Of a stretch of DNA of 64,000 bases, positions 3,455 through 48,462 are shown piece by piece; the stretch's first letter is position 1; each line of letters begins with the position of its first letter. A program made the translations under genes and the position numbers. The DNA is taken from contig CM102289.1 of the NCBI GenBank assembly GCA_046563655.1, positions 2,480,001 to 2,544,000 on the forward strand, read 5' to 3'. The DNA is from Yuukianura sp. NJ FZ-2021. Lineage: Eukaryota. A model generated the notes under the pieces. The model made no database searches. It had not been told where the DNA came from and worked only from the letters and a program-made list of their open reading frames with translations.

Positions 3455-3700
3455 TATAAAACCGAAGAGTTTCAGCTCAAATTTCGTAGTATTTTGGTTC
3501 ATTTCGATTCAACTACATAAAAAATCCAAGGGCAACGAGAGCATTTGGTGCTTTAACAAGTACGTTAAGCAAAGTAGCTTTAGATACACATATTTTAAAA
3601 ATACTAAAATACATGCATTATAGAATATATTATTGTAGAATTCTTGAACTTTTTCGCTTTAACTTTGAATCATTGAATCGTATTTCAAATTTATGTTTAG
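3455..3700 (+). promoter_or_regulatory. Putative TATA box and 5'UTR intron of the hydrolase gene
   Basis: TATAAAA 3455-3461; donor GTACGT 3560; acceptor TTTAG ending 3700, 4 nt before ATG; AATAAA at 4253. Confidence 0.5.
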
Positions 3701-3704
3701 CAAA

Positions 3705-4097
3705 ATGGCAAACTTAACCACGACACAAGTTTTTGCAAGAACAATTTACGCCGAAGCTCACAGAGAAGACGAGGAAGTACAAGATGCTGTAGCATGGGTA
3801 ATCAAAAATCGCGCTGAAAACGACTACGGAAGTTCCAGGCTAACTTCTAAGAATATCGATCGTGTTTGTCGTCAATTTCCATGCTGGATTGGCAAAACTG
3901 ACATCAACACGAGCGATAAAGCAGCTTACAACACAGCTCTCAGGGTGGCGGGTAGAGTTCTTGGTCAAAATCATCGCCATGATCCGACTGAAGGTGCTGT
4001 CCGCTACAACAATCCTGACAAAGAAGGATATCCTGAATGGACTAAGAATTACAAAAGAGGTGTACAAATTGGAAGCTTCCAGTTTTACAATGAATAG
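3705..4097 (+). CDS. Cell wall hydrolase, SleB/CwlJ-like (Hydrolase_2 family), 130 aa, intronless CDS
   Basis: ARTIYAEA (catalytic Glu), AVAWVIKNR, QFPCW, DPTEGAVRY, QIGSFQFY match bacterial/phage Hydrolase_2 motifs; start CAAAATGG. Confidence 0.88.
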   Translation: MANLTTTQVFARTIYAEAHREDEEVQDAVAWVIKNRAENDYGSSRLTSKNIDRVCRQFPCWIGKTDINTSDKAAYNTALRVAGRVLGQNHRHDPTEGAVRYNNPDKEGYPEWTKNYKRGVQIGSFQFYNE

Positions 4098-21760: not shown

Positions 21761-23836
21761 ATGGCTCCCGACGTGGGAATTCTTCGGGCGGTGTCGAAAA
21801 CTAACCTGGACGATGCTCTCGGAGTCTTGAGAGGCAACAAAATCCTAATTATTGAGTCCAAACTCACGCCAACGTTGGATTTAATCGCTAATTATCAATT
21901 CTTGAGGTAAATTTTGCCTTTTGTTCTTTGAGGTCGTCATGAAATACAACTCAACGGTGATTATAATCAACTTTTTGTTTTCTTAGAGATCATGGAGTGG
22001 TGAAAGTACTTTATCTGGAAGCAGGCGAAGTCCCACAGCCAACCCAAGATTGTACACAGGCTCTTTACTTCATTCGATCCAGTCTTGTCAGTGCCAAATT
22101 GGTTTGCGATCAGATTAACAGCAACAATTGCAAATTGAAACCGGGAGCAATGACTTACGGCGTTGTTGTGATTCCTCGTAAACTGCACATAATCACTGCT
22201 TTGTTCGAAGCTGAAGGAGTGTACGGATTAGTCAAACTGGAACAGTATGCCCATGAGTTGATTCCACTCGATGACCATATTCTGTCCCTTCAGTTTGATG
22301 ACATTGTGTCAAATTTCTGGCTGCATCGTGACACTTCATATCTTCCAGCAGTTGCAAGGTCAATATTCAATCTACGGGGGATATTTGGAGAGTTTCCACA
22401 TTTGGTAAGGAACTGAGTGGGATATGTCGTTTGTTCATCGTTTTCCTCACATCTTATTCATTTTTTTTTAATAGATTGGGCTCGGTCCTTACTCCCGTTC
22501 ACTTGTAAACATAATGGATGAATTTGAAGTTATTTTCAAAAACAGCCTTCCACGACGAAGTCAGTCGTCTGAAATTCCTACTGTGATAATTATGGATAGA
22601 GCTCTGGATATGGTCACTCCTCTACTCACTCCACTCACATATGAAGCCATGCTTGATGAAGTATTTGGAATCAAAGGGAAGATTATCACATTTGAATCAG
22701 ATGTTACCGGAAAACCAGAACCTGTAAAACACATGTTGACTTCTGCGGATGAAGTTTTTGAGAAAGTACGGAATCTCCACTTTTCTGCCGTTGTATCTCA
22801 ACTACTCACTGAATCCAAAAAGTTGAATGACGAACGGAAGCAGTGCTCCTCTGGCCTAATGGATGCCAAGTCCATGAAAGAATTTGTTGAGAAACGACTA
22901 AAATCTATTCAGATGTATCAGAAAACGTTAGGACTTCATCTCGGAGCATTAGACGTTATCATCAAGGCAAAAGCAAATCAAATCAGGAAACAAATGGAGT
23001 TGGAGGACAGTATCATTTCAAACAGTGGGCACAAGGAAATATACACTTTTCTGGAAGATTCAATGGCCAAGGGAACTGATCCAATTGCTATCCTTCGACT
23101 CATAGCGTTAACGACTTTGGCACAAGATGGAGTAAGGGATTGTCGTTCCATCAAGACCCAATTTATTCAGAGTTATGGCTTCAATCACTTGGCGACACTT
23201 CATAACCTTGAGAAAATGGAGTTACTGTACCCATTCCGTGGCGTGGAAGTTAATGCTAAAGGCGTGGCTCAAGTCCTGACGAAGGTTGTAAACACGACAA
23301 CTTCAAGTGTAACATCCTCAGGATCTTCTGGGAAGCCTGCAACAGTTCCATTCCAAACTGTACTCAAGAAGCTGAGTAAGTTTCGCTCAATTTTGAAAAA
23401 TTCAAAAAAGATTTTCAAGATTTTTTTTTTTAATTTTTTAGTACCGCCATCCAACGTGGAAGTTACTTTCGAGTCTCCTGAGCATTCCAGTTACGTGTTT
23501 AACGGCAAGTTTACTCCGCTGATTGGCAAATTAGTGGAGGAAATTCTTCCTGTACTGGCAGCTCCCAAAAACAACACTACCTTGATTGAAAAAAAGTTAG
23601 AAGATTTAATGAAATTTTATCACATCTCTGAGAATGTCGTCAGAATTAGCAAGGGAAGCGACGCATATGGACGTGGAAGGAATGCCTTAGTTTTCGTAAT
23701 TGGAGGCATCACACGAGTGGAAATTGCTGCCTTGCAACTAATTGGAAAGAAGAACGATTTGAATTTCAACATCATTTGCGGTGGAACAGATATTACAAAT
23801 GGAAAGAAAATCATTCAAGAACTCATGAATTTATAG
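21761..23836 (+). CDS. VPS33B: Vacuolar protein sorting 33B-like (Sec1/Munc18 family), exons 21761-21906, 21987-22404, 22475-23375, 23442-23836
   Basis: ELIPLDDHILSL, MDRALDMVTPLLTPLTYEAMLDEVFGI, SYVFNGKFTPL, VFVIGGITRVEIAAL are Vps33 motifs; LIIESKL..LDLIA and EGVYG favour the B paralog. Confidence 0.85.
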
Positions 23837-34337: not shown

Positions 34338-37300
34338 TTAGGATTCCGTCTTTGAAGGTGCGCTTGAAGTCGAACTGGCAAGTTTTTTGGAATACTTCAA
34401 CTGTTCCTGGGCTTTCCACTCTCGTTTGGCAGGATACCTCTTCAGTTGTCCATCCCAATCTAGGTCAACGAGACCTCCAGCACGCGCAATCTCAGCCTTA
34501 ACCTTTAAAAAACGTAAAGTTAAAGTTCAAAATATTCTGTGTAAAACCACAGGAACAATTAGAATTCTAAAATCTAGTATGACTTACCCTGTTTGCAAAA
34601 CCAATGGCCGATTCTCCTTCCATTCTTTCCATGGGTGGCAGGTACCATACATCACAAACAATGGCCCAAGATGTCATCATCATGTACAAATACTGTAGCA
34701 TCGTCTGCTCACTCGAGTTCCAAAAGGCGTCGCCAAACCGTGGGTCATACTGTTGCATTAAACAATAAAAAAAAAAACAAAATTAAGAACTTTAAAAGCC
34801 ATAAAGCATATTTTCTCATATTTTAAGATTGAAAAAAAAAAAACTAAAGTTATTGGATTTCGGATTACCTTGATTGCTACTGGATAAACTATGCCTCCTA
34901 CTTCAAAGGAGCCTTTCTTGAATTGCATAACAGCGCTGTTATTTATGCAGGTGCCTTCCGGAAATATCAAAATTGGTAACTTGTTTAGGTTTTCCACATG
35001 TTGTTTCAACCTAGCAATCAGTACAGTTAGTAGCATTAATTATGAATAACCCTTCTAGATTTAGGTGAACAATCCAAAAACTCTCCTACACCACATATGG
35101 ACAAACCCTGTTAATGTACTTGTATCCAATTAACAGCTGATGGCAGTACAGTAAATTTAAATAACCCCTTTGATCTTACGATAATTTTAAAATAATTTTC
35201 AATCATATCCGACGATTTCCTGACCACGAATTAGCTTAGTTTTCTAAATTAAGTGTACTTTTGGAATGCCCATTTCCGTTTTAGGTTGTTGTAAAATATG
35301 TTAACACGCACACATGACCACAAAAAGAAATAGTTTTTTAATTACTGTCCATATGTGGTGTAAATGGTTTGCCCGCATGCGTTACCAAATCCCCTAACTT
35401 TTATTTGGTATCTGGTAGGTAATGCTACTAGTTTGGAAGTAAACGAACTAGTATTAGTTTCCTAATAATTTTAGTATTTTTGAACGAATGCATTTTTAAG
35501 CTAACTGCAATTGTGGTGTTACCTATTCGTAACAGCCATTCTGTCCTTTGCTTCTGCTCGCTCAAAGAAAATGTGATCCGTGGCTCTGCGCAGGACAGAT
35601 TGCAAAAACCCCAAGAATCCACCATGAATCTGGCCAATCTACGAACCAAACAAATGTGAAGTCAGAATGGTAACATTAATTTTTGTTAATGTCGGATTGA
35701 ATGGACACGACTAGTATGTCAAACTTACCAGAGCAAATGACGTTTCACATCCCAGGGGAACAATGTCCATTACTGTTGTGTGATTAGCCACGCAAATTCC
35801 ACCCGGCTTTGGTTTGTTCTCCGTTTGATGGTAAGTTGCAATCAGAGAGAATGAGCGCGAGAAGAGACGATGTGAAAATCTAGTCAAAACGTCATGAATT
35901 TCGCGTTTCCTTTCAAACGAATTCGGAACGAGTCCAATCAAGGCAGTAGTTATGACTAGCGTGAGCATCTATGAATCCCCAAAATTTTAAAGTTGGCATA
36001 CATGTTTAAAATATTTATGTACTTTTTTATCAGCGTACTGAAACTACGAAGAAAACCATGCGAATGGGAAGCAGAATCCAGTAGCGTAAAATGAAACCCA
36101 GGACCCATATGAGAGTGACACGGAAGGAAATAAACTCGTAGCTCCGATTTGTTCTCGTCAGCATATTCCATGACTAAAAAAAAATAAAAAATTACAAAAA
36201 TCATTAAAAACTCATTCAGGACTTCGGTCATCAAATTCGTCTTATTGCCCTTTACAATATTCAGAGTAAACTTATTTGTAATTTGATAGTGACTTTGGAC
36301 TTGGACTTTGATTATGAACTCCAAGGATACTTAAAATACTGTTATCAGGGAAATTGGTTTTGTGCGTCAATTGCACATTCAGACTTCAGACAAAAATAAT
36401 TGCGTGTGATAGTGAAATTAATGCCGCATGACATAAAAAACTGAAACCCAAGGGAAAAATCACGCGAAGCTCTAGATTTCTTTTTTTTCTGTGAATTTTA
36501 CGTCATGACACAAAATGCAATTAACAAACTCTAACGCTTGTCTCACACACGTTAGCGTTTGTCTTCGAACTAAATCATTCAGAAGTTAATTGGTACCTTC
36601 AACTCTTCCGTAATAAAACGTTGTGTCACTTGATCGTTGACAATCGCTTCAATTCCTGAGGAGACAAACTCAAAAATGTCGGTGAGTAAAAAGTCAGCCG
36701 TAGGTTCCTCACGTATCGCGTCCGCCTGAAACACAAATATGGTACAAATAGTAGTAATTAAAAGTTTTTTTTTACATTAAAAAATCCTATGAAGTTGACT
36801 GGAGTTCACAAAATTCTTGTACGTGGTTAGATTGATCGCCGAACACCACCGCAGTATGTTACTTTATTACACAGAACCATTTGTTGTTTCATGTCACGAA
36901 AACTTACCGACTGTGAATGCGCTACGCCAACCGATACCGTGTCATCTGATATGCTTAACCGTCGTTTTGTTGTTTGTAGAATGCTACTTGGCGGAGTATC
37001 GTAAACTGCAGATCTAGTTCTGGTTCTTGATCTTTGTACAGGAACAGGATTGACAACACGACTCTCATTTACAAACGTCGGGGTTGCTTGTTTTTCATTC
37101 TTATCGGAGTCTGAATCTGAACTTGTCCCGTAGTCATCTTCGTCACTCGTATTTTGATCTGGGGCGTGTTTTGATTTTCTGGCCTTGTCAATTCGTCTCT
37201 TGCCATACTATTTTCAAAAGTCAGTTTTTAATTGAGCCGTTCCACTTTTTCGAGAAAATATCTATATCAACAACTCTCACCTCAAACAAATAAATGAGGA

Positions 37301-37424
37301 CTCGGACATATAATCTTCTGAATCCAATCGATTTTCCAAATGCGGCTGGGATAAAGATCAGTATGAAAAATGCAAGCAATGGCCCATAGCAGAACGATTT
37401 CCACGCAATCTCAAAGGCGCCCAT
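34338..37424 (-). CDS. GPAT4: Glycerol-3-phosphate acyltransferase 3/4 (AGPAT9/6-like), multi-exon
   Basis: GICVANHTTVMD (HxxxxD), LIFPEGTCINNSAVMQFKKGSFE, YDPRFGDAFWNSS, MMTSWAIVCDVWYLPPM, GGLVDLDWDGQLKR; GPAT3 vs GPAT4 not resolvable. Confidence 0.92.
35087..35362. mobile_element. Small TA-flanked MITE in a GPAT intron
   Basis: Perfect 17-bp inverted pair tacaccacatatggaca / tgtccatatgtggtgta. Confidence 0.7.
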
Positions 37425-38119
37425 CCTGTTCTCTGTAAAAATATTCATACACAGGTTAGAAATTCATACATTACTGCCAGTAATTTACTGGTAACTCATA
37501 TAGTATTAAAAACGGAATGTATTTACCGCAAAATCAACTTAAATTATAGAAGTTAATGACAGTCTGATGTTTTGAATGATGAATTAATTGAACTATAAAA
37601 TGCGACTGATTACCAAACTACTACGACCGACCTTAGGTTAATTAGTGTGTCTTCTCTTGTGACTTGTGTGACTGTGATGTGATTTAGTGATTTACTATTA
37701 TGCATATGCAGTGTACTTTAATTTTAGTGAATCTTCATCTTCAACGTAGACCAATATCGAAGGGTGGGGAACAAAAAAACAGCAAAAAACACTTGAACGT
37801 GTTTTGAAGGTCTTTTGATTCAAATGTTTGAAAATTTTCTTGGCGCTGGAGATGAAAAGAGAAAAAATTTCAGAGTGGCGTTGCACGCAACAATAGTAAA
37901 GTTGCACTGAAAAAGAAATGTTTTTGTCACTAATTTGTACAAAAAAAAACTAGTTATCGGAAATAATTAACGTGGCTTGTGATTTGTTCAAGTACTTGAA
38001 AGATGAACGCAATCCCTAAAGCAAGACCATGCAGATACGATAAAGATTTTATCATCGTCAAGTTCATTGCAATTTTTTGCCAATATCATCTTGCTGCGTT
38101 AGCATTTAAAATCAATTTC

Positions 38120-39285
38120 CAGGAGCCGCGAGCTGTGCCTAGATAATCGGAATTTAGTTCCCGATTAAGAAAAAACGACGAGCACACCGAAACCACTAAT
38201 CGGAATTTTTCCGATTATCCCTAATCTTGAGATAATCGTCAGCTAACCCAAAAAAATCTGGTTAGGGTGTGATCACCCAGAAAATTAATACCGATTAAGA
38301 GTTTCAGAGATCACACCTTCCTAATCTAACCAGATTTTGATGCTGAAACAAAAACCACTCCGGAGCAGTTTTATCTCGGTAATAACGTGAATCTCCCTAC
38401 TACATCAAATCTCCATCGAGTCATGACCATTCTTTTGAGTCACGACCGATGCCGTTCTCCATATTTTCGTGTAACGTTTACATAAATACACCAAAAGGGC
38501 TGTTGGCCCGTCTCCGTTATGAACCCCCGGAGTACTAACGTACGATCTCAACTCTTGTCATCACTATTCGTTTCCATTCGGAGTCTACTCGGTAACTAAT
38601 GTATCATCATCATCCATCACTATTTAGTTCAATTCGGAGTCTACTCGGTACCTAATATAGCATGCATCACTATTCGATTCCATTCGCTGTCTACTCGGTA
38701 CTTAATGTATCATGCCACGTTATGTCGTCACTACAACTATTCATGTGGCCTTGACTCGTCTAAATAGACGGCCGTGACTCACATGAACTTGACTGATCTT
38801 TGTTCAGAAGGCAGACTAACGTTTTACTTACGTCCGTGTACTCCTAACAGTAAGGACGAGAGATGATTGATTATGTAATAACAAGGTCACCGATTTAGGC
38901 ATTAGCAATGAAAACGATGGCTACACTGCGAGTTACGGCCAACTAGTACTATGCTAGTTGAGTCACAACCGCAATTAAGCCAATGAGTGGTATCGGTACT
39001 CAATTAAATTGATCAGTGATTCCGTGGAGCGGTAGAACTAATGTGATGAGATTTGAACTTGATTGTGTATGTAAGCAGCTGCTGTTTGTTTACATTGTAA
39101 GTTTTCCAATCCCGCGCGTCCCGTGTCACGATGAAAAACTGGTTAGGTTAAGGGCTAAACCAGAGGTTGTCTTAATCTAACCAATTTTTGGAGTGTGATC
39201 TCCAAATGAAACCAAGTTTTTCTTCTGGTTAAGGTTAGATTACGCTAATTCACATTTTAATGCTCGGAGTGTGATCGTGGCTCCA
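38120..39285. mobile_element. Degenerate inverted-repeat element, boundaries approximate
   Basis: ggagccgcga / tcgtggctcc ends; taatctaacca, tggttagg and gtgtgatc motifs in both orientations at both ends. Confidence 0.4.
38559..38712. repeat. 3 tandem copies of a 50-56 bp unit
   Basis: catcactatt...attcggagtctactcggta.ctaat at 38559, 38615, 38665. Confidence 0.85.
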
Positions 39286-39672
39286 GAGTTTTGCCCACTA
39301 TACCCGAAATAACCTTTTTTTCATCTAGCAAATGGCAACTGAATTCACATATCATTTGAAAAAAAAAACTGTAACTACGAATACTATTAAATCCATGAAG
39401 TAGTGATAAATTCAACTTAAACCCAATTTGACTATTCAACAACTAAATTCAATTAAACGATACCAACATTTTGTTTGTTGGTGGTTTTCATTTGTTCAAA
39501 AATTTTCGGCGTCGTACAACAAAATTTTTTTGTAGACGGAGATTTGGTATGATAAACGTTAAAAACGTTATAATTCTACACTACAGGTTAACCTTGAACT
39601 TCACATTTTTATCATTCCAAGAAAGAATTTCGTCTTTAACATTGACAAGCCCTGTAAGAAGACATGCCACAC

Positions 39673-41025
39673 TAGGGCAAATTTTCAAATTGAAAATTTT
39701 AATTCTTAAAGTCTTACCCCCTCAAAACATTTCTATACGTTAAAGAAAAATCGTTGCAAAAAATGGAACCCCTACGACATGTCTAAGGGGTCCCTCAAAC
39801 GCCCTAATGAAAACCCAATAGCATAATACACTGCTATAAGCCTTCCCGCTATTTGAAGGCATTTATTTCAAAGGGTCTCACCACCCTGCATTGTCGCATA
39901 TATATAAAAAATTCCTGCAAGATATTTACCCGATCGGACACCTCTAAGGGGTCCCTCAATCATTTTATATGTAGAGCAGGGGTCCCTTATGAGTAACTAT
40001 TTTTCAAATCAACAATTTCCAATTCCTCCAAAAGCTACCGATTCGATTGAAAATTTGCGGGATGAAACGATGACAGTCCCCTATGGAATAGCTCGAACCC
40101 TTTAGTCGTTCGACCTTTGACCTCCCTATGCGGGGGGCAGGGGGGTTATAGTTCTCAAGTGGAGCATCCTTGCAAACCTTATAGCTTCATCAATTCTCAG
40201 CCGATAGAGATGGTACCGGTGGCATGTAAAAGCTACTTATAATATTTAGTAATGTTTTTAATTGTGATTTAAGGTCATTGACCTCCGAGGTGACCCCGTG
40301 ACCTTACCACAACCCTATGCAAGTGACACTTTACTACAAAGGTCTTGACAAGCTGAGTCAGAATATATATAAACGCTGATGCTATCGGCCAACCCTTTGA
40401 CCTCTAAAGGTCAAAACCGTGCGAAGTCATTCCGTGACCTCTGCAGGTCATGGGGTTGTTCGAAAGCGTCAATATCTATATACATTCTGAATCAGCTCGT
40501 CAAGAGATTTGTTGCGGGGTATCATATGCATAGGGTTGTCGTAAGGTCACGGGGTCACCTCGGAGGTCAATGACCTTGAATCACAATTAAAAACTTGTTT
40601 ACAAAATATGAGTAGCTTTTATATGCCACCGGTACCATCTCCATCGGTTAAGTATTGATGAAACTATAAGGTTTGCAAGGATGCTGCACTTGAGAACTAT
40701 AACCCCCCTGCCCCTCATAGGGAGGTCAAAGGTCGAACGACTAAAGGGTTCGAGCTATCCCATAGGGGACTGCCTTCGTTTTATCCTCCAAAATTTCAAT
40801 GGAAGCGTTAGGTCTTGTAGGAATCGGAAATTGTTGATTTGAAGAATAATTACTCATAAGGGACCCATGCTATGCCAATAAGATCCTTGAGGGACCCCCT
40901 AGAGTCAACAAAAAAATCTGAAAATTTTACTGATTTTTTTTTCTTATATAATGTAACATTTATAAGGGGTAAGACTTGAAAATTAAAAACGTAAGAAAAA
41001 TTACATGTATTGAAAATTTGCCCTA
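39673..41025. mobile_element. 1.35-kb foldback (Mutator-like) non-autonomous element with 9-bp TSD
   Basis: Termini tagggcaaattttcaa / ttgaaaatttgcccta; perfect direct repeat atgccacac at 39664 and 41026; internal arms 39942-40385 and 40465-40904 are reverse complements. Confidence 0.88.
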
Positions 41026-41198
41026 ATGCCACACGGACATCATCTTTGAAAGTGTGTATTTATTTGGTCTAATCTAAACAATTCTTTAAGATTATGACTC
41101 TATGAAAGTGGACTTTGTATCTCATAAAAATAAAGCGTCTCACGCCATCCAATTTTGTCGCTTGGTACAATCAGTATTCAAAAAATCGTCTTACTAAA

Positions 41199-43483
41199 AT
41201 GTTCAGGTCAAAGTTACTTTCTTACATTTTTAGAAGTCAAGGACAATGTCCTGCAAAAGTCATTGGAGCAATGACGCGGCGGTTACTTTCTGGGGAAGCC
41301 CGAACTTCAGAACTACTGAAGCGGAGAAAAGTTCGAACGGTTGATTTGGCCATTTTCAAAAAAGAACAAAAGCCAATTACCATGGTAACAGCCTACGACT
41401 ATCCATCGTCACTACACGTGGATTTGGCTGGTTTCGACATTTTGCTTGTTGGAGACTCACTAGGAATGGTTCAATTGGTGAGCACAAACTTTTCTAATGA
41501 CTTTAATTTTAGTGAAAAAGAAGTCACAACAGCAGCGTTCAGATCTTAGTGCATATAAACGACTTACCAAAAAGTTGTAGAATGTTTACGTTTAGAATTT
41601 TTTGTTGCAGGGAATGGACAATACAGTTCGAGTTACTATGGACGATATGATTCATCATTCAAAAGCGGTTGTACGGTGAGGAATTCGAAAGAATTTCAAT
41701 GAGTATTTTTGTAGTTTGACCTGAAAAGTATGAATGTGTTCGTTATAAAATTGGTTGCAATACTTGTTTTAGAGGTGTAAAACGAGCTTTAACTGTTTGC
41801 GATATGCCGTTTGGATCTTGCGAAGGAGACCCATATGAAGCCCTTAAGAATGCACAAAAATTGCTCAAGGTATTTCGTAATTAGGTTCCTTTGTCGTTGC
41901 TTTTTTCGGCAAAATTTCAACTGTCAAACCAAATTCACAAAGTTTTAAAAAAAAACAGTAACTAAAACACTTTACAGAAAAACTTTACGAGAAGTATAAC
42001 TAATATGAACATAAATCAAGATTAATTTTATTTATTAAATTCCATTTGTAGGAAGGCGGTGTAGATGCAGTAAAAATTGAAGGTGGCCTAACACGAGCTG
42101 ACACTGGTAAATGATATTATAACTTACTTGGTTAGGTTTGCTGATAGACATTTAGCCACACAGGATTTCAAAAAAGTTAAAGCTATGCTACACGTTATGC
42201 TAACTTCTTTTGGTAACTACAACTATATAAAAACATCATATTCGTTTTAATGCCCTTACTTTTCAAACTATGTTTTGGTAGTCAAGAAGATAGTTGATGC
42301 GGGTATAGCAGTTATTGGACATGTTGGTCTCCAGCCCCAGCACATAAGCGTCTTGGGCGGATTCCGTCCACAAGGACAAACCGGTAAGACCGTGAAACAG
42401 TTCGCATATTTAGAGCGGAACATTCAAAAGTCGCGCCAAAATGGCAATCGTAATGTTTTTGACATTTGATGGCTTTGGGCTTAGCGGACACAGCGGCATT
42501 GATAATAGAAGATGCACTTGCTATTCAGGTAAACTGATATGCTATTTACCACATTTTGATTTACTGTATAGTAATTCTGAGGAATTCGGGTTTTATTTAT
42601 TTAGGAAGCCGGAGCGTGTGCCATTGTGATAGAGTGCGTACCGTCGGTATGTTAATGTTTCTATGTATTTGATTTAGTGAAAACTGTTGACGGAATTGCC
42701 TAATCTTTAATTACATTTTAATACTTTGAATATAAAACATTATGATTCTACATGCTAATTAATTTGAATAGCTTAATTAATTCTATTTTGTAGATTATTG
42801 CACTCGCAGTGACTGAATTGTTGGATGTTCCTACAATTGGCATAGGAGCCGGACCGTATACAAGTGGACAGGTAGGTAGCACGCCGTTTATATCACTATT
42901 AGGTAGTGAAATACGAATATTGAAGTGAAAAGTTCGCTTAATTTTAGGTATTGGTATTCCACGATCTCCTGGGATTCTACCAACACAAACACAGCGTGGT
43001 ACAAACATTTCTATTGAAAACTGACAACATTTGCGGTACTAGCTTGGCTGAAGCAATTTTTTGTTACGCAGCAATACATGCCCAAGTTTTGTAAGCAGTA
43101 TGCCAATGTGAGTGAGGTCATTAGACTAGGACTGGAGGCATATCGAGATGATGTAGAAAGCGGAGAGTTTCCAGATAGACAGTACTCTCCGTACAAGGTA
43201 ATTGTAATTGGTAACATTGTAATTGACAAAATCATCGATTTTAAAAGTAGCACGTAACCTGATACAAAATTCCCTTTATGTGCGTGTCCTAAGTAGCTTT
43301 TTGTTAAATATTTACAAGATTTTTGTTTTCAACATCAACGTTACGTTCAATTTTTAGATGCACCCTGAGGAGCACGACGAGTTCCTGCAAATGGTTCAAC
43401 AGAAGTACGGTCATATGAAAAAGTTCACGAAAAAAGATGCTGGAAGTAGCTCAGACCATAACTCAATTCCACGCGGAGGTTAA
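41199..43483 (+). CDS. panB: Ketopantoate hydroxymethyltransferase, 11 exons (41199-41477, 41611-41675, 41773-41869, 42052-42106, 42282-42383, 42485-42528, 42605-42646, 42794-42871, 42948-42998, 43072-43197, 43358-43483)
   Basis: [74 protein letters not shown]; all introns GT-AG and frame-consistent. Confidence 0.95.
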
Positions 43484-44023
43484 ATTTTTAATAAATAGGT
43501 TCAAAACACGCATTTGTACAGTGTGTTAAACTTAACGTTACTCTACAACAAAACTCTACCAAACAGTATAGTCAGTTTTCACACTCTTACAGTTGTATTA
43601 AAAATAAGTTAATTTTAAAGTTGAAATGTTAGTCAGTTTTGCGTTTTTCTCCATTTTACAATATTTTTATTGTACAAATATAGCTCACAAAACCAAAACT
43701 TTTTTGCTTAGTGAGCGTTATCATTGATCACTATTGAGCGATTGAAAAATGAATTGTGGAGTGAAATATACGCAAATAAATTCGGTAGTTCAAAATGGCT
43801 GCGGAGGTAGAGCGTATTACCTTCAGCGTACGCACACTGCAACTTTTCATTGTAAATTGAAGGTTGGTTATATAAAATTACAATTAACAATGACTTTAGA
43901 AATGGCATTCGCAAAAATATTTAATTTTTTTTTGATTGTTTCCTTCAATGTTGCTCTTATTCCATCTTTGAGAAAGTTATGTTAGCAAACTGCTAAAATT
44001 CACGACAAAAGGAACTTTTCAAA

Positions 44024-45581
44024 ATGGAACTTTTGGGTTTCGTAAATTTTCTCTTGAGTTTTCTTGGGCTTTCTCTAACGTCTTATGAAAGCGGAAGTAA
44101 ACCTCGCTGTCTTAACGATACTGCCGGCATCGAAGGTTTGTAACGCATAATTTTTTCTTATTGTAACAGGTGATTAGCGCGAAAACATTATGCCCGAATT
44201 CAGCAAGTCAACTACAGCTGAACTGAATGTCACTGGGGTGTATAAGTTTTTTAAACGGCGTGTTTCCATTGGTAATTTAAGTTTATTGTTACCAACTTGT
44301 GGAATTCGCGCTAACGACGTATTTAATTTTTCTTATAATTGATTATTTCTTATTTCTTGTCCATAATTATTAATCCGTTAATTATTTTACGGGAAAAGGC
44401 GAGAAATTGTCTCCGATTGAAGGCAGAGTAGTGAACGGTGTACCCGTCCGGATTGAGCAAGTACCGTATCTAGCACAGATTGTAGTTGTGACGTCACCAG
44501 GACGAGGAAGAAGATGCGGAGGTAAATATGCAAAATATTAGTATACAAATGTTTTTAAGCATATTATTTTGTTATAATTGAAACTTTTACCTTACTTGTG
44601 TTGATTATTACCCAAAGGAACGATTTACTCCAAAGATTTCATTATTACGGGTAAGTTTTGTCTACAAATTGTACTTTTTTGAAAAAATATGGTAATTGAA
44701 AAGTCATTTTTCTCTTTGTAGCTGCACATTGTTTTGTGTATTCAGAGAATATATTACGAACGACCCCAAGTCAAGTGACTGTATACGTTGGAAAAACTCA
44801 TTTACAAGCGATAGACCCGGAGCAGGTCGAACTTAGCGTCACGCGAATTATTGTACATGAAAATTACAACAAAAGTGCCAGTTTGGATTCAGATATAACG
44901 CTTCTAAGAGTTTCGCCACCGATTCAGTTCAATAAGTACATGCAAAGGATTGAAGTCGCTTCGGAATATCCGGCGACGTTTCTATCAACGGGTAGACAAA
45001 TTTTTCAAATTTAATCACCTTCAAAAATTTTTTCTGAGTAGTCAAAAATCTCTGTTTTAATGCTCCCATGAGCTCAAATGTCAAAAACATTTTTTAGGAG
45101 CAATACTTGCAAGTATCTCAAAATTTTTTGTTTCATAAACCAAAATGTTTTGTGATTTTTAGGAAGTTCTGCTGCTCTTGTTAGCGGTTGGGGTTCCACT
45201 GAGAAACGATTTGTGGACAGCAGTAAAGCAAACCTCCGTCCGTCGGAAACACTCAATGCTGGAAGGCTAAGAATGATTACGCGTCAAAAATGTTCGGAAG
45301 AGTATCGGGCTGTAGATGCGTCGAAGGTTTATGAAAGTGGACGTTCTCCTGATGGAAAAACTGGAATAATAGATTTGGGAACACTTCCTTACACAGTTTT
45401 CTGTGCAACAACTACTGGAGTAAGCGCTTGCGATGGTGACAGCGGTGGACCACTTTTCTGTGACAATCCAATGAAGGTTTGCGGTGTTGCGTCATATTCA
45501 TTCGGTTGTGGCTACGGCGTGTCGAATGTGTTCACTGACCTCATACAGTTATTGCCTTGGATCAAACAAAACGCAATTTAA
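44024..45581 (+). CDS. Secreted S1A serine protease copy 1 (5' exon structure uncertain)
   Basis: IEGR-VVNG activation site, CGG, TAAHC (split by intron), SDITLL, SACDGDSGGPL. Confidence 0.85.
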
Positions 45582-45764: not shown

Positions 45765-46640
45765 CAGTTACTGTTCTGCTCCTTGTACAACTTTCTTTTT
45801 TCCGATTTTGGAAGTAGGTTTCCCAGTAATGCAGAAATGGCCTAGCCTTCGGATGCACCAGCATCAGCATCCACTTCAGCTTTAGCATCCCCTTCACTTA
45901 CGATTAGATTTTCTGGCTGTTCGTTATTGTTCTGTGCGGGATCATGAACATCTAAAAATTTGAAACAAGAAATTTTGTAAATCTTAAAAAACCAAGTTAA
46001 AAGAATTTACTATATTTAGTTGCTAGGGCGTAGTTCCTGACTTACCGCAGACGTTACAAAATTTAGCGTAATTTGGCAGCATGTAGACAGGGTTACTGTT
46101 GCACTCTCCATGGGACGTCCAAGCCTCACAATATTGGTCCATGTCACAACAAGCACCAGCTTCAGCATTGACTTTTGACTCGGCTTCCTCTACCTCCTGA
46201 GCAGTGTTGGTGGATATCCACTTTTTCGACATTTCATCCACGGCTGGATATCCAGTGGTAGAAATGGACGAAATGGATGAATCCAAAGGGGCGGAGCTTT
46301 GCCCTCTGAATTTGAATTAATTGACTACAAACAACTAAAAAACGTGAAAACACAGTTCAAAAACTATTTATATATCGTTTTTAAATATGTTTTAAATAAT
46401 ATATTAACTATAATCCGGAACGTAAAGCTTTCTGGTATCATTTCGTAAATTTAAATTTGAATTGATTTGAATTTCGCGCAAAATTTGTGATTTCTTCCAT
46501 CCACTTTTAGTTTCGTCCATTTTGGGTGCGTTTCTTCCAGTGGATATCCACTGGAAGTGGCAATTAAGCCACTGGACGTTTAAGCGTCCACCAACACTGC
46601 TCCTGAGGCTCGTTGATGTTTCGAGCAGGAGCTTCTACGA
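45765..46640 (-). pseudogene. 5'-truncated ShK-domain gene copy disrupted by a MITE
   Basis: Matches exons 2-3 of the gene at 48646-49608; lacks exon 1; one Cys changed to Tyr (LPNYAKFC). Confidence 0.85.
46202..46599. mobile_element. 398-bp hAT-like MITE
   Basis: TIR cagtgttggtgga / tccaccaacactg; 8-bp TSD ctcctgag at 46194 and 46600; empty site in the paralog near 49073. Confidence 0.9.
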
Positions 46641-46867
46641 TATATTTTCAACTTCAAAATGCTTCACATACACTGCAACTGTTTATTGTAAATTGAAGGC
46701 AGATTATATAAAATCACAATTAACAATTACATTAGAAATGGCACACCCAAAAATATTTAAGCCTTTTGTATTGTTTTCTTCAATGTTGCTCTTATTTCGT
46801 CTTTGAGAAAGTTTTTGTTAGCATACTGCTAAAATTCACGACGAAACAAAGGATTTTTTTTTCCAAA

Positions 46868-48462
46868 ATGGAACTTTTGGGTTTCGTAAATTTTCTTTTA
46901 AGTTTTCTTGGGCTTTCTTTAACGTCTTATGATAGCGGAAGTAAACCTCCCTGTCGTAACAATACTGCTGGCATCGAAGGTTTGTAATGCCTAATTTTTT
47001 CTTATCGTAACAGGTCATTAGCGCGAAAACATTATGCCCGAATTCAGTAAGTCAACTACAGCTGAACTAAATCTCAATGGGTTGTGTACATTGTTTAAAC
47101 GGTGGGTTAAGTTCCACTGGTAATGTAAGTTTATTGTTGCCAACTTGGAATTCGCGCTTATTGTTTTCGCGCTAATGACGTATAGCTTTTTTTTATTATT
47201 GATTATTTCTTACTTCTGTCTCTGATTATGAATCCGTTAATTATTTTACGGGAAAAGGGGGGAAGTTGTCTCTGATTGAAGGCAGAGTAGTGAACGGTCA
47301 ACCCGTTCGGATTGAGCAAGTACCGTATCAAGCACTGGTTGTAATTGTGCTGTCACCACAACGAGGAAGAGCATGCGGAGGTAAGTATGCAAAGTATTCG
47401 TATAAAAATGTTTCTCAGAGTATTATTTTGTTATTAGTTTATTATTATTGAAATGCTTACTTTACGTATGTTGATTATTACGCACAGGAACGATTTATTC
47501 CAAAGATTTCATTATCACCGGTAAACTTTTTTTATAAGCAGTACTTTTTTTGAAATATTTTGGTTATTGAAGAATCATTTTCCTCCTTGTAGCTGCACAC
47601 TGTTTTGTGCATTCAGAGGATATATTCCGGCCAACTCCAAATCAAGTGACGGTATACGTTGGAAAAACTCATTTCACAGCGAAAGACCCGGAGCAGGTCA
47701 AGCTAAGAGTCACGCAAATTATTCTACATGAAAATTACAACAAAATCACCGATTTCTATTCAGATATTGCTCTTTTAAGAGTTTCGCCACCGATCCAGTT
47801 CAATAAGTACATGCAAAGCATTGAAGTCGCTTCAGAGTACCCGGCGACGTTCAACTCAAAGGGTAAACATTGCAAGATTGAATCACATACAAAATTTTAG
47901 TTTGAGTATTGTAGTCAAAAACTCAATTTCTGTTTTAATGCTCCCATGACCTCAAATGTCAAAAACATTTTTAGGAGCAATATTGAATTTTGTATAACTC
48001 AAAATTTTTTGTTGCATAAAAAATAATGTTTTGTGATTTTTAGGAAGTTCTGCTGCTCTTGTTAGCGGTTGGGGTGCCACTGTCAAACGATTTGTGGACA
48101 GTAGTAAAGCAAACCTCCTTCCGTCAGAAACACTCAACGCCGGAAGGTTAAGAATGATTACGCGTCAAAAATGTCAGGAAGAGTATCACGCTGTAGATGC
48201 GTCGAAAGTGTATGAAAGTGGACGTTCTCCTGATGGAAGAACTGGAATAATAGATTTGGGAACACTTCCTGACACAGTTGTCTGTACAACAACTACTGGA
48301 GTAAGCGCCTGCGACGGTGACAGCGGTGGACCACTTTTCTGTGACAATCCAATGAAACTATGCGGTGTTGCGTCATTTGGATACGGTTGTGGTAACGGAG
48401 TGTCGAATGTGTTCACTGACCTCATACAGTTATTGCCTTGGATCAAAGCAAACGCAATTTGA
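46868..48462 (+). CDS. Secreted S1A serine protease copy 2
   Basis: Same exon layout and intact H/D/S triad as copy 1. Confidence 0.85.

Follow-up and report, generated by a model that had tools for sequence, protein, structure and literature searches.

An eleven-exon PanB gene in a springtail genome, probably acquired from an oomycete

Animals are taught as pantothenate auxotrophs. How does a springtail chromosome come to carry an intact reading frame for ketopantoate hydroxymethyltransferase (PanB), from which organism did the gene arrive, and what might it do in its present host? The gene lies at positions 41199-43483 on the forward strand of a 64 kb stretch of the Yuukianura sp. NJ FZ-2021 assembly (GenBank GCA_046563655.1, contig CM102289.1, positions 2,480,001 to 2,544,000); this whole stretch is referred to here as the window. 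A first-pass annotation made from the DNA letters had described the locus as an intron-rich, plant-like and probably mitochondrial panB. The present analysis points to another source: panB is probably a nuclear springtail gene that entered its host as genomic DNA, by horizontal transfer from an oomycete or an unsampled organism close to the oomycetes.

Gene model and enzyme family

Splicing by coordinates joins 11 exons into 1065 coding nucleotides, corresponding to 354 codons and a stop, with the reading frame intact. All ten introns are of the GT-AG type, measure 73-182 nt and have a GC content of 22-42%, compared with 45% in the exons and 36.6% across the window. On inspection of the sequence, no other in-frame ATG lies between the ATG at 41199 and the stop upstream of it. 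The predicted features are the following:

41199..41477 (+), exon 1: residues 1-93, with a presumed mitochondrial presequence at about 1-31, a pre-domain motif also seen in oomycetes, and the first part of the PanB domain with G85-D86-S87; PF02548 profile positions 1-49, 46.8 bits
41611..41675 (+), exon 2: residues 94-115, ending in phase 2; PF02548 profile 51-71
41773..41869 (+), exon 3: to residue 147, with D125 in the CDMPFG motif; PF02548 profile 73-104
42052..42106 (+), exon 4: residues 148-165, ending in phase 1, with K155 and E157 in VKIEGG
42282..42383 (+), exon 5: to residue 199, ending in phase 1, with H179 and the motif at residue 187; PF02548 profile 124-156
42485..42528 (+), exon 6: to residue 214
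42605..42646 (+), exon 7: residues 215-228, with E224 in IECVP
42794..42871 (+), exon 8: residues 229-254; PF02548 profile 187-211
42948..42998 (+), exon 9: residues 255-271, with a 5-residue His-containing insert that is absent from bacterial PanB
43072..43197 (+), exon 10: residues 272-313, with the motif at residue 275 followed by SPYK; PF02548 profile 225-258
43358..43483 (+), exon 11: residues 314-354 and the stop, a C-terminal tail without a Pfam match
43490..43495 (+): AATAAA polyadenylation-type signal 7 nt past the stop, recognized from sequence only

The family assignment agrees across profile collections. PF02548, the ketopantoate hydroxymethyltransferase family, is matched colinearly by six of the seven scanned exon translations of at least 20 residues, over profile positions 1-258 of 259, and three exons exceed its 28.7-bit cut-off on their own (46.8, 38.1 and 30.3 bits). 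The NCBIfam equivalog TIGR00222 (panB) likewise gives colinear matches in all five exon translations scanned. The window protein was scanned as exon pieces; its nearest full-length homologue, P0035 from the oomycete Globisporangium ultimum (68% identical), reaches 320.4 bits with TIGR00222 against a cut-off of 207.55. P0035 also matches the crystallized PanB proteins of Escherichia coli (PDB 1M3U) and Mycobacterium tuberculosis (PDB 1OY0), with E-values of 7e-64 and 6e-69, respectively.

The active site appears complete. By way of the alignment of P0035 with 1M3U and the positions of the motifs in the window, residues D86, S87, D125, K155, E157, H179 and E224 align with D45, S46, D84, K112, E114, H136 and E181 of the E. 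coli enzyme, which we take to be the residues that bind magnesium or act in catalysis. The GDS, D-x-PF, K-x-E-GG, GH-x-G and E-C-VP motifs of the bacterial proteins are all retained, and the springtail protein adds an N-terminal extension of about 40 residues, the 5-residue insert and a 40-residue C-terminal tail to the bacterial chains. As judged from its sequence, the gene is thus PanB, a ketopantoate hydroxymethyltransferase (KPHMT, EC 2.1.2.11). Specifically, the splicing result and the colinear PF02548 matches uphold the initial description of an intact enzyme gene with ten introns. The basic N-terminus free of acidic residues, also noted at that stage, is equally present: residues 1-33 contain four Arg and two Lys, and the earliest acidic residue is at position 33.

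Donor and route of transfer

Sequence similarity gives the first indication of the donor. Exon 1, searched against longer proteins, yields 824 matches, of which the best 120 are listed; the first 60 of these are oomycete proteins, bar a few unnamed ones, and no protein named as animal occurs among the 120. Across its whole length, the spliced product shows 63-69% identity to most full-length oomycete proteins (at best 68.4% over 313 residues), compared with 58-60% for brown algae, 52-54% for green algae and 43-52% for bacteria. When P0035 was searched against 1.84 billion cluster representatives, nothing closer to the springtail protein than the oomycetes came up, and none of the 148 new representatives listed exceeds 57% identity over at least 200 residues. 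Furthermore, a metagenome scan for genomic panB loci kept 80 loci, the best of which shows 76% identity to Globisporangium and 60% identity to the springtail protein; each match forms one unbroken stretch, as in bacterial genes or cDNA-like contigs, and so carries no intron information. The oomycete 3-methyl-2-oxobutanoate hydroxymethyltransferases, from Globisporangium ultimum, Phytophthora, Pythium, Aphanomyces and Saprolegnia, and the springtail protein have in common the pre-domain motif ..ART..LL.R.KV.T.D and the 5-residue insert before PKFCK. In contrast to its oomycete counterparts, the springtail gene has AT-rich codons and introns, a presequence of its own and a long terminal branch, and it sits in an animal genome.

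Phylogenetic analysis leads to the same group. A quick tree of 142 rows unites the window protein with 31 oomycete rows in a clade that has a support of 100 in the SH-aLRT (Shimodaira-Hasegawa-like approximate likelihood ratio test). A careful tree of 68 rows, computed under LG+C20+F+G4 with posterior mean site frequencies (PMSF), recovers a clade of the window protein, one metagenomic cDNA-like sequence and 18 named oomycetes, with a support of 100/100 and a stem length of 0.8, to the exclusion of named red algae, ochrophytes, thraustochytrids, green algae, Amoebozoa, a fungus, a holozoan and bacteria. Alternative placements were compared by approximately unbiased (AU) tests, in which delta lnL is the cost in log-likelihood units:

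Window with green algae (n=5): delta lnL 82, p-AU 2.6e-11, rejected
Window with the fungal/holozoan type: delta lnL 114, p-AU 1e-21, rejected
Window with bacteria: delta lnL 110, p-AU 2e-4, rejected
Window with ochrophytes: delta lnL 38, p-AU 0.005, rejected
Window with red algae: delta lnL 34, p-AU 0.04, rejected
Window outside the sampled oomycetes (oomycetes monophyletic without it): delta lnL 0.1, p-AU 0.57, retained
Window with Saprolegniales: delta lnL 2.1, p-AU 0.52, retained
Window with Peronosporales: delta lnL 11, p-AU 0.22, retained

Since the five outside placements are rejected and the other three are retained, the donor is an oomycete or a close unsampled relative, and the tests do not single out one branch.

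These results bear directly on the other sources that might be proposed. A plant or green-algal donor would account for several motifs, as variants of ...GGFRPQ... and PKFCKQYA... also occur in Haematococcus, but it is very unlikely given the lower identity of green algae, the 100/100 oomycete clade and the p-AU of 2.6e-11 in a set that contains no land plant. The label "plant-like" in the first-pass annotation is therefore not sustained. The motifs on which it drew are indeed present, at residues 187, 259, 275 and 310, but they fail as a sign of plants because they are common to the whole eukaryotic clade, oomycetes included. The broader proposal of a source that is eukaryotic, not animal and not bacterial fares better. 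A bacterial panB that acquired its introns later would follow the pattern of previously described arthropod acquisitions, which are all bacterial according to one report (PMC7738191). Such an origin is nevertheless barely conceivable here: identity to bacteria is 43-52%, the bacterial placement costs 110 log-likelihood units (p-AU 2e-4), the 5-residue insert and the pre-domain motif are of eukaryotic or oomycete type, and the introns stand at donor positions. The initial contrast with the bacterial-derived pan genes of arthropods accordingly holds.

The same annotation had allowed for rare retention, according to which PanB was present in the opisthokont ancestor and was kept by this springtail lineage among few animals. 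PanB does occur in a unicellular holozoan (a Corallochytrium-type record, P0142) and in a fungus (Ramicandelaber, P0159), such that the animal ancestor may have had one, and the many introns are what an old eukaryotic gene would show. Retention is nonetheless highly improbable, as grouping with the fungal/holozoan type costs 114 log-likelihood units (p-AU 1e-21) and the gene belongs to the oomycete clade at 100/100 support, with an intron 1 position specific to oomycetes.

Among the other sequences in the set, a second PanB labelled as animal (P0146, a UniRef record assigned to the amphipod Hirondellea gigas) is 48% identical to the window protein and is not related to it. It groups with an unnamed sequence (100/99) and then with a heterolobosean (95/87), and it could stem from an independent transfer or from protist sequence in a contaminated transcriptome. 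In addition, many protist PanB proteins from Amoebozoa, Fabomonas, Diplonema and unnamed sources (P0136, P0139, P0149, P0171, P0151, P0160 and others) are, at 600-1100 residues, far longer than PanB. The name 'pantoate-beta-alanine ligase/...hydroxymethyltransferase', given to some members of these clusters, suggests that they are PanB-PanC fusions; the springtail and oomycete proteins each have a single domain.

The introns speak to the route by which the gene travelled. They interrupt the window protein at residues 93, 115, 147, 165, 199, 214, 228, 254, 271 and 313. The 73 indel boundaries in 27 oomycete proteins include 44 that are no more than one residue away from a window intron, with 9.3% expected by chance, and each of the ten window introns is matched at least once, residue 147 by 11 proteins and residue 165 by 10. 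At residue 93, the similarity to P0035 ends exactly in 20 of the 59 protein matches of exon-1 size and gives way to Val and unrelated residues; these fragments include named ones from Phytophthora fragariaefolia and P. citrophthora. The Val after the break is, on the reading of these sequences, the signature of translation through a GT splice donor, and the same pattern recurs at residue 147 (Globisporangium splendens and Phytophthora nicotianae) and at residue 313 (Aphanomyces astaci). Remoter eukaryotic fragments among the 59 matches break elsewhere, several of them at about 98 or 109, which indicates that eukaryotic panB genes do not generally have intron 1 at this position.

The intron comparison proposed in the first-pass annotation was run against oomycetes, and the coincidence of all ten positions with oomycete breaks means that the exon structure was inherited from the donor and not gained. 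A gain of introns after the transfer is rejected, as the positions match those of the donor. The lengths do differ, with 73-182 nt in the springtail compared with retained-intron inserts of about 8-27 residues in oomycete proteins. As a separate observation, the remoter fragments P0309-P0312, P0314, P0320, P0322, P0332 and P0339 break at fixed sites, at about residue 98 followed by QV and at about residue 109 followed by CKV. Intron positions thus seem to differ by lineage and might serve as markers in a wider study.

Several points weigh against an oomycete origin with inherited introns. The oomycete introns are deduced from ORF (open reading frame) fragments and from indels in mis-annotated proteins relative to the oomycete majority, as opposed to oomycete genomic DNA; the introns at residues 214-271 are matched by two oomycete proteins each and that at 313 by one; and the binomial p-values for the coincidence are only indicative, overstating independence because the oomycete proteins are kin. 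On the springtail side, the exon/intron structure and its splice sites are DNA-based predictions, and none of the sequencing runs listed for this locus is of RNA. The AU tests are based on fast LG+F+G4 searches of a 39-row subset of the 68 rows, and the trees stand without land plants, Dikarya, hyphochytrids and named basal oomycetes, with green algae in place of plants. The window branch has a length of 1.1, compared with 0.05-0.6 in oomycetes, such that long-branch artefacts may affect its exact position; the support for a clade of oomycetes alone is 10 in the 142-row tree, which does not separate a placement inside the group from one beside it. The C-terminal ...KVY that is invariant in ten aligned oomycete proteins is missing from the springtail tail. 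No annotated springtail protein appears among the matches listed in either the exon 1 search (best 120 of 824) or the exon-1-sized search (59), so that panB is either patchy in springtails or unannotated. Finally, on the side of function, a lone PanB makes no vitamin.

Host linkage, age and possible role

Does the gene truly belong to the animal? Springtails graze hyphae, and whole-body libraries could contain oomycete DNA from gut content or a parasite, so that an oomycete fragment might have been stitched into a springtail scaffold. The gene is, however, flanked on either side by host genes, 41 kb from the start of the 64 kb window, and other ORFs of the window encode Sec1, trypsin (a tandem pair), ShK and acyltransferase domains. 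The host genes that matter most for the argument are these:

21967..23836 (+): VPS33B (Sec1 family) gene, a springtail-type host gene
34758..37207 (-): upstream host gene, with an acyltransferase-domain exon at 34758-35039 (PF01553) and a further ORF at 36827-37207
44700..45581 (+): downstream host gene, a trypsin-type serine protease (PF00089), the first of a tandem pair

The large exon of VPS33B is 52% identical to Folsomia candida, 51% to Allacma fusca and 50% to Orchesella dallaii, with the next named animals at 31% and 27%, which identifies the host as a springtail that is close to none of these three. DNA contigs from four runs in two studies span panB at a depth equal to that of its flanks. 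Furthermore, a 7932-nt contig (run X4, record 23), diverged by about 5-8%, covers 36001-37621 and 41027-44155 and thereby joins panB to the upstream host gene and the downstream spacer. The GC content at third codon positions (GC3) of panB is 0.40, inside the range of eight host ORFs (0.29-0.44). Contig coverage at flank depth, the bridging contig and the host-like GC3 together make contamination or a chimeric assembly unlikely; with the AT-rich introns and an identity of only 63-69% to any oomycete, we regard this explanation as very improbable. The linkage to animal genes on which the first-pass annotation had depended is thus borne out, and the preferred reading remains a nuclear springtail gene of probable oomycete origin.

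The same composition speaks to the age of the event. Because the codon composition matches that of the host, the transfer is old, as had initially been proposed; the AT-rich introns, longer than those of the donor, and the long branch likewise indicate that it happened long ago. Two unnamed fragments, P0283 from a metagenome contig and P0297, have derived residues in common with the window protein, namely an E before ART and an L after YPS-x, and their read-through tails are rich in residues of AT-rich codons. The alignment of P0283 with the window protein starts at the first Met and takes in the presequence with its TRR-x-LS motif, at 59% identity over 104 columns. These fragments are probably orthologues in other animals, in which case panB would predate this species.

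What might the enzyme do? The basic N-terminal presequence, in which no acidic residue precedes position 33, would direct PanB into mitochondria, with possible cleavage near TRRLLS; a mitochondrial location is plausible, and one source annotates the Phytophthora ramorum homologue as mitochondrial. There, valine-derived alpha-ketoisovalerate and 5,10-methylene-tetrahydrofolate would be on hand, and PanB would hydroxymethylate alpha-ketoisovalerate to ketopantoate, which would constitute the first committed step towards pantothenate. The formation of vitamin B5 from ketopantoate would in turn depend on ketopantoate reductase (panE) and pantoate-beta-alanine ligase (panC). A complete B5 pathway encoded by the animal is predicted with a confidence that falls slightly short of an even chance.

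Under the same oomycete origin, the gene could instead play another role, as an isolated step that supplies gut microbes or an endosymbiont with ketopantoate or pantoate, as part of a pathway shared between organisms, or as an expendable relic. A pantothenate pathway split between organisms is documented for cyst nematodes (PMC9582021), and the matches listed include no annotated ortholog from another springtail. A relic is hard to reconcile with a frame, splice sites and aligned active-site residues that all survived through full compositional amelioration, and with a probable ortholog that carries a homologous presequence elsewhere (P0283). These observations do not separate a complete from a shared pathway, and a lone or shared step is possible, if doubtful.

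With these parts in place, a fuller scenario can be sketched. An early springtail would have taken up oomycete chromosomal DNA and kept an 11-exon gene whose ten donor introns are spliced correctly by the animal. Together with an oomycete-derived alternative oxidase (AOX), the gene would belong to a set acquired from one oomycete associate, perhaps a parasite, and together with the reductase and panC it would give the animal its own B5 synthesis built of eukaryotic parts. As a whole, this scenario is tentative and would have to be called unlikely at present.

The two halves of this scenario have separate precedents. A preprint describes springtail AOX as derived from an oomycete donor (bioRxiv 10.64898/2026.06.01.729305). 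The AOX case involves the same donor and recipient groups and likewise concerns a nuclear gene with introns and a mitochondrial presequence among host genes; both genes are placed beside or within oomycetes, with the exact donor not fixed. AOX is, in contrast, a different enzyme of a different pathway and is described from 48 species, whereas panB is seen in this genome and in two unnamed look-alike fragments. The term pantothenate has no occurrence in the AOX preprint.

Pantothenate-pathway genes have also reached animals by transfer. According to two reports (PMC7738191, PMC9582021), the donors were bacteria in every case, and the recipients were spider mites, a russet mite, whitefly, mealybug and cyst nematodes. 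As in the springtail, the panB and panC genes of tetranychid and eriophyoid mites, whitefly and mealybug and the panC of cyst nematodes were acquired by animals and lie among host genes; these cases differ in their bacterial donors, their plant-feeding or plant-parasitic recipients and the inclusion of panC. Springtail panB stands apart through its eukaryotic donor, its carried-over exon structure and its soil-living recipient. Literature searches found no report of a panB or pantothenate transfer in springtails, and the incomplete texts available of the supplements to the Folsomia candida and Orchesella cincta genome papers contain none of 'pantoate', 'oxobutanoate' and 'pantothenate', which is weak evidence.

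Taken together, this is a real, old eukaryote-to-animal transfer that joins two known themes, arthropod pantothenate genes and oomycete genes in springtails, and is special in keeping the whole exon-intron structure of its donor. The known exceptions to animal auxotrophy are sap-feeding or plant-parasitic arthropods and nematodes with a bacterial panB or panC; in the present case, a soil decomposer received its gene from a eukaryote. A full exon-intron structure on arrival is rare direct evidence of transfer at the level of DNA between eukaryotes, and the predicted splice sites imply that an animal spliceosome is able to handle ten foreign introns. As the second oomycete gene in springtail genomes after AOX, panB furthermore offers a testable link to an ancient oomycete associate. 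It also makes it possible to ask, in a clear-cut setting, whether springtails can do without vitamin B5 in their food; if the reductase and panC prove to accompany it, a detritus-feeding animal would have its own synthesis of this vitamin.

Neighbouring sequence and minor observations

The spacer upstream of panB at 37835-41063 is polymorphic, with contigs that skip 1204 nt (38110-39315) and 1392 nt (39670-41063), and its depth rises 3- to 10-fold; these segments are probably transposon insertions confined to the assembled haplotype. Downstream, the trypsin-type protease genes form a tandem pair at 43700-45581 and 46471-48462 (both +) with duplicated upstream sequence, and the ORFs at 43746-43985 and 46471-46806 have a common motif. 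At 45909-46642, the summed contig depth climbs from about 200-400 to about 57,000-70,000 in run X1, and a similar rise is seen in the three remaining runs. The segment has dozens of loose ends and alternative joints and looks like a very high-copy repeat or transposon beside the ShK-domain gene at 46023-46316.

Further away, positions 366-20542 (-) hold a tandem array of at least eight two-exon, seven-transmembrane chemoreceptor-like genes with the common tail ...VVVTNTIMLLQM(F/V). One protein of this array was tested and matches the 7tm_6 family below threshold, with 21.9 bits against a cut-off of 25.8. An ORF for a bacterial-type cell-wall hydrolase lies within the array at 3669-4097 (+). 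At the opposite end of the window, positions 57890-63998 (+) contain very long ORFs of 656, 174, 473 and at least 365 residues with weak P-loop matches only and a Gly-rich stretch at 60215-60739; they appear to belong to one large gene, not assigned to a family, that continues past the end of the window.

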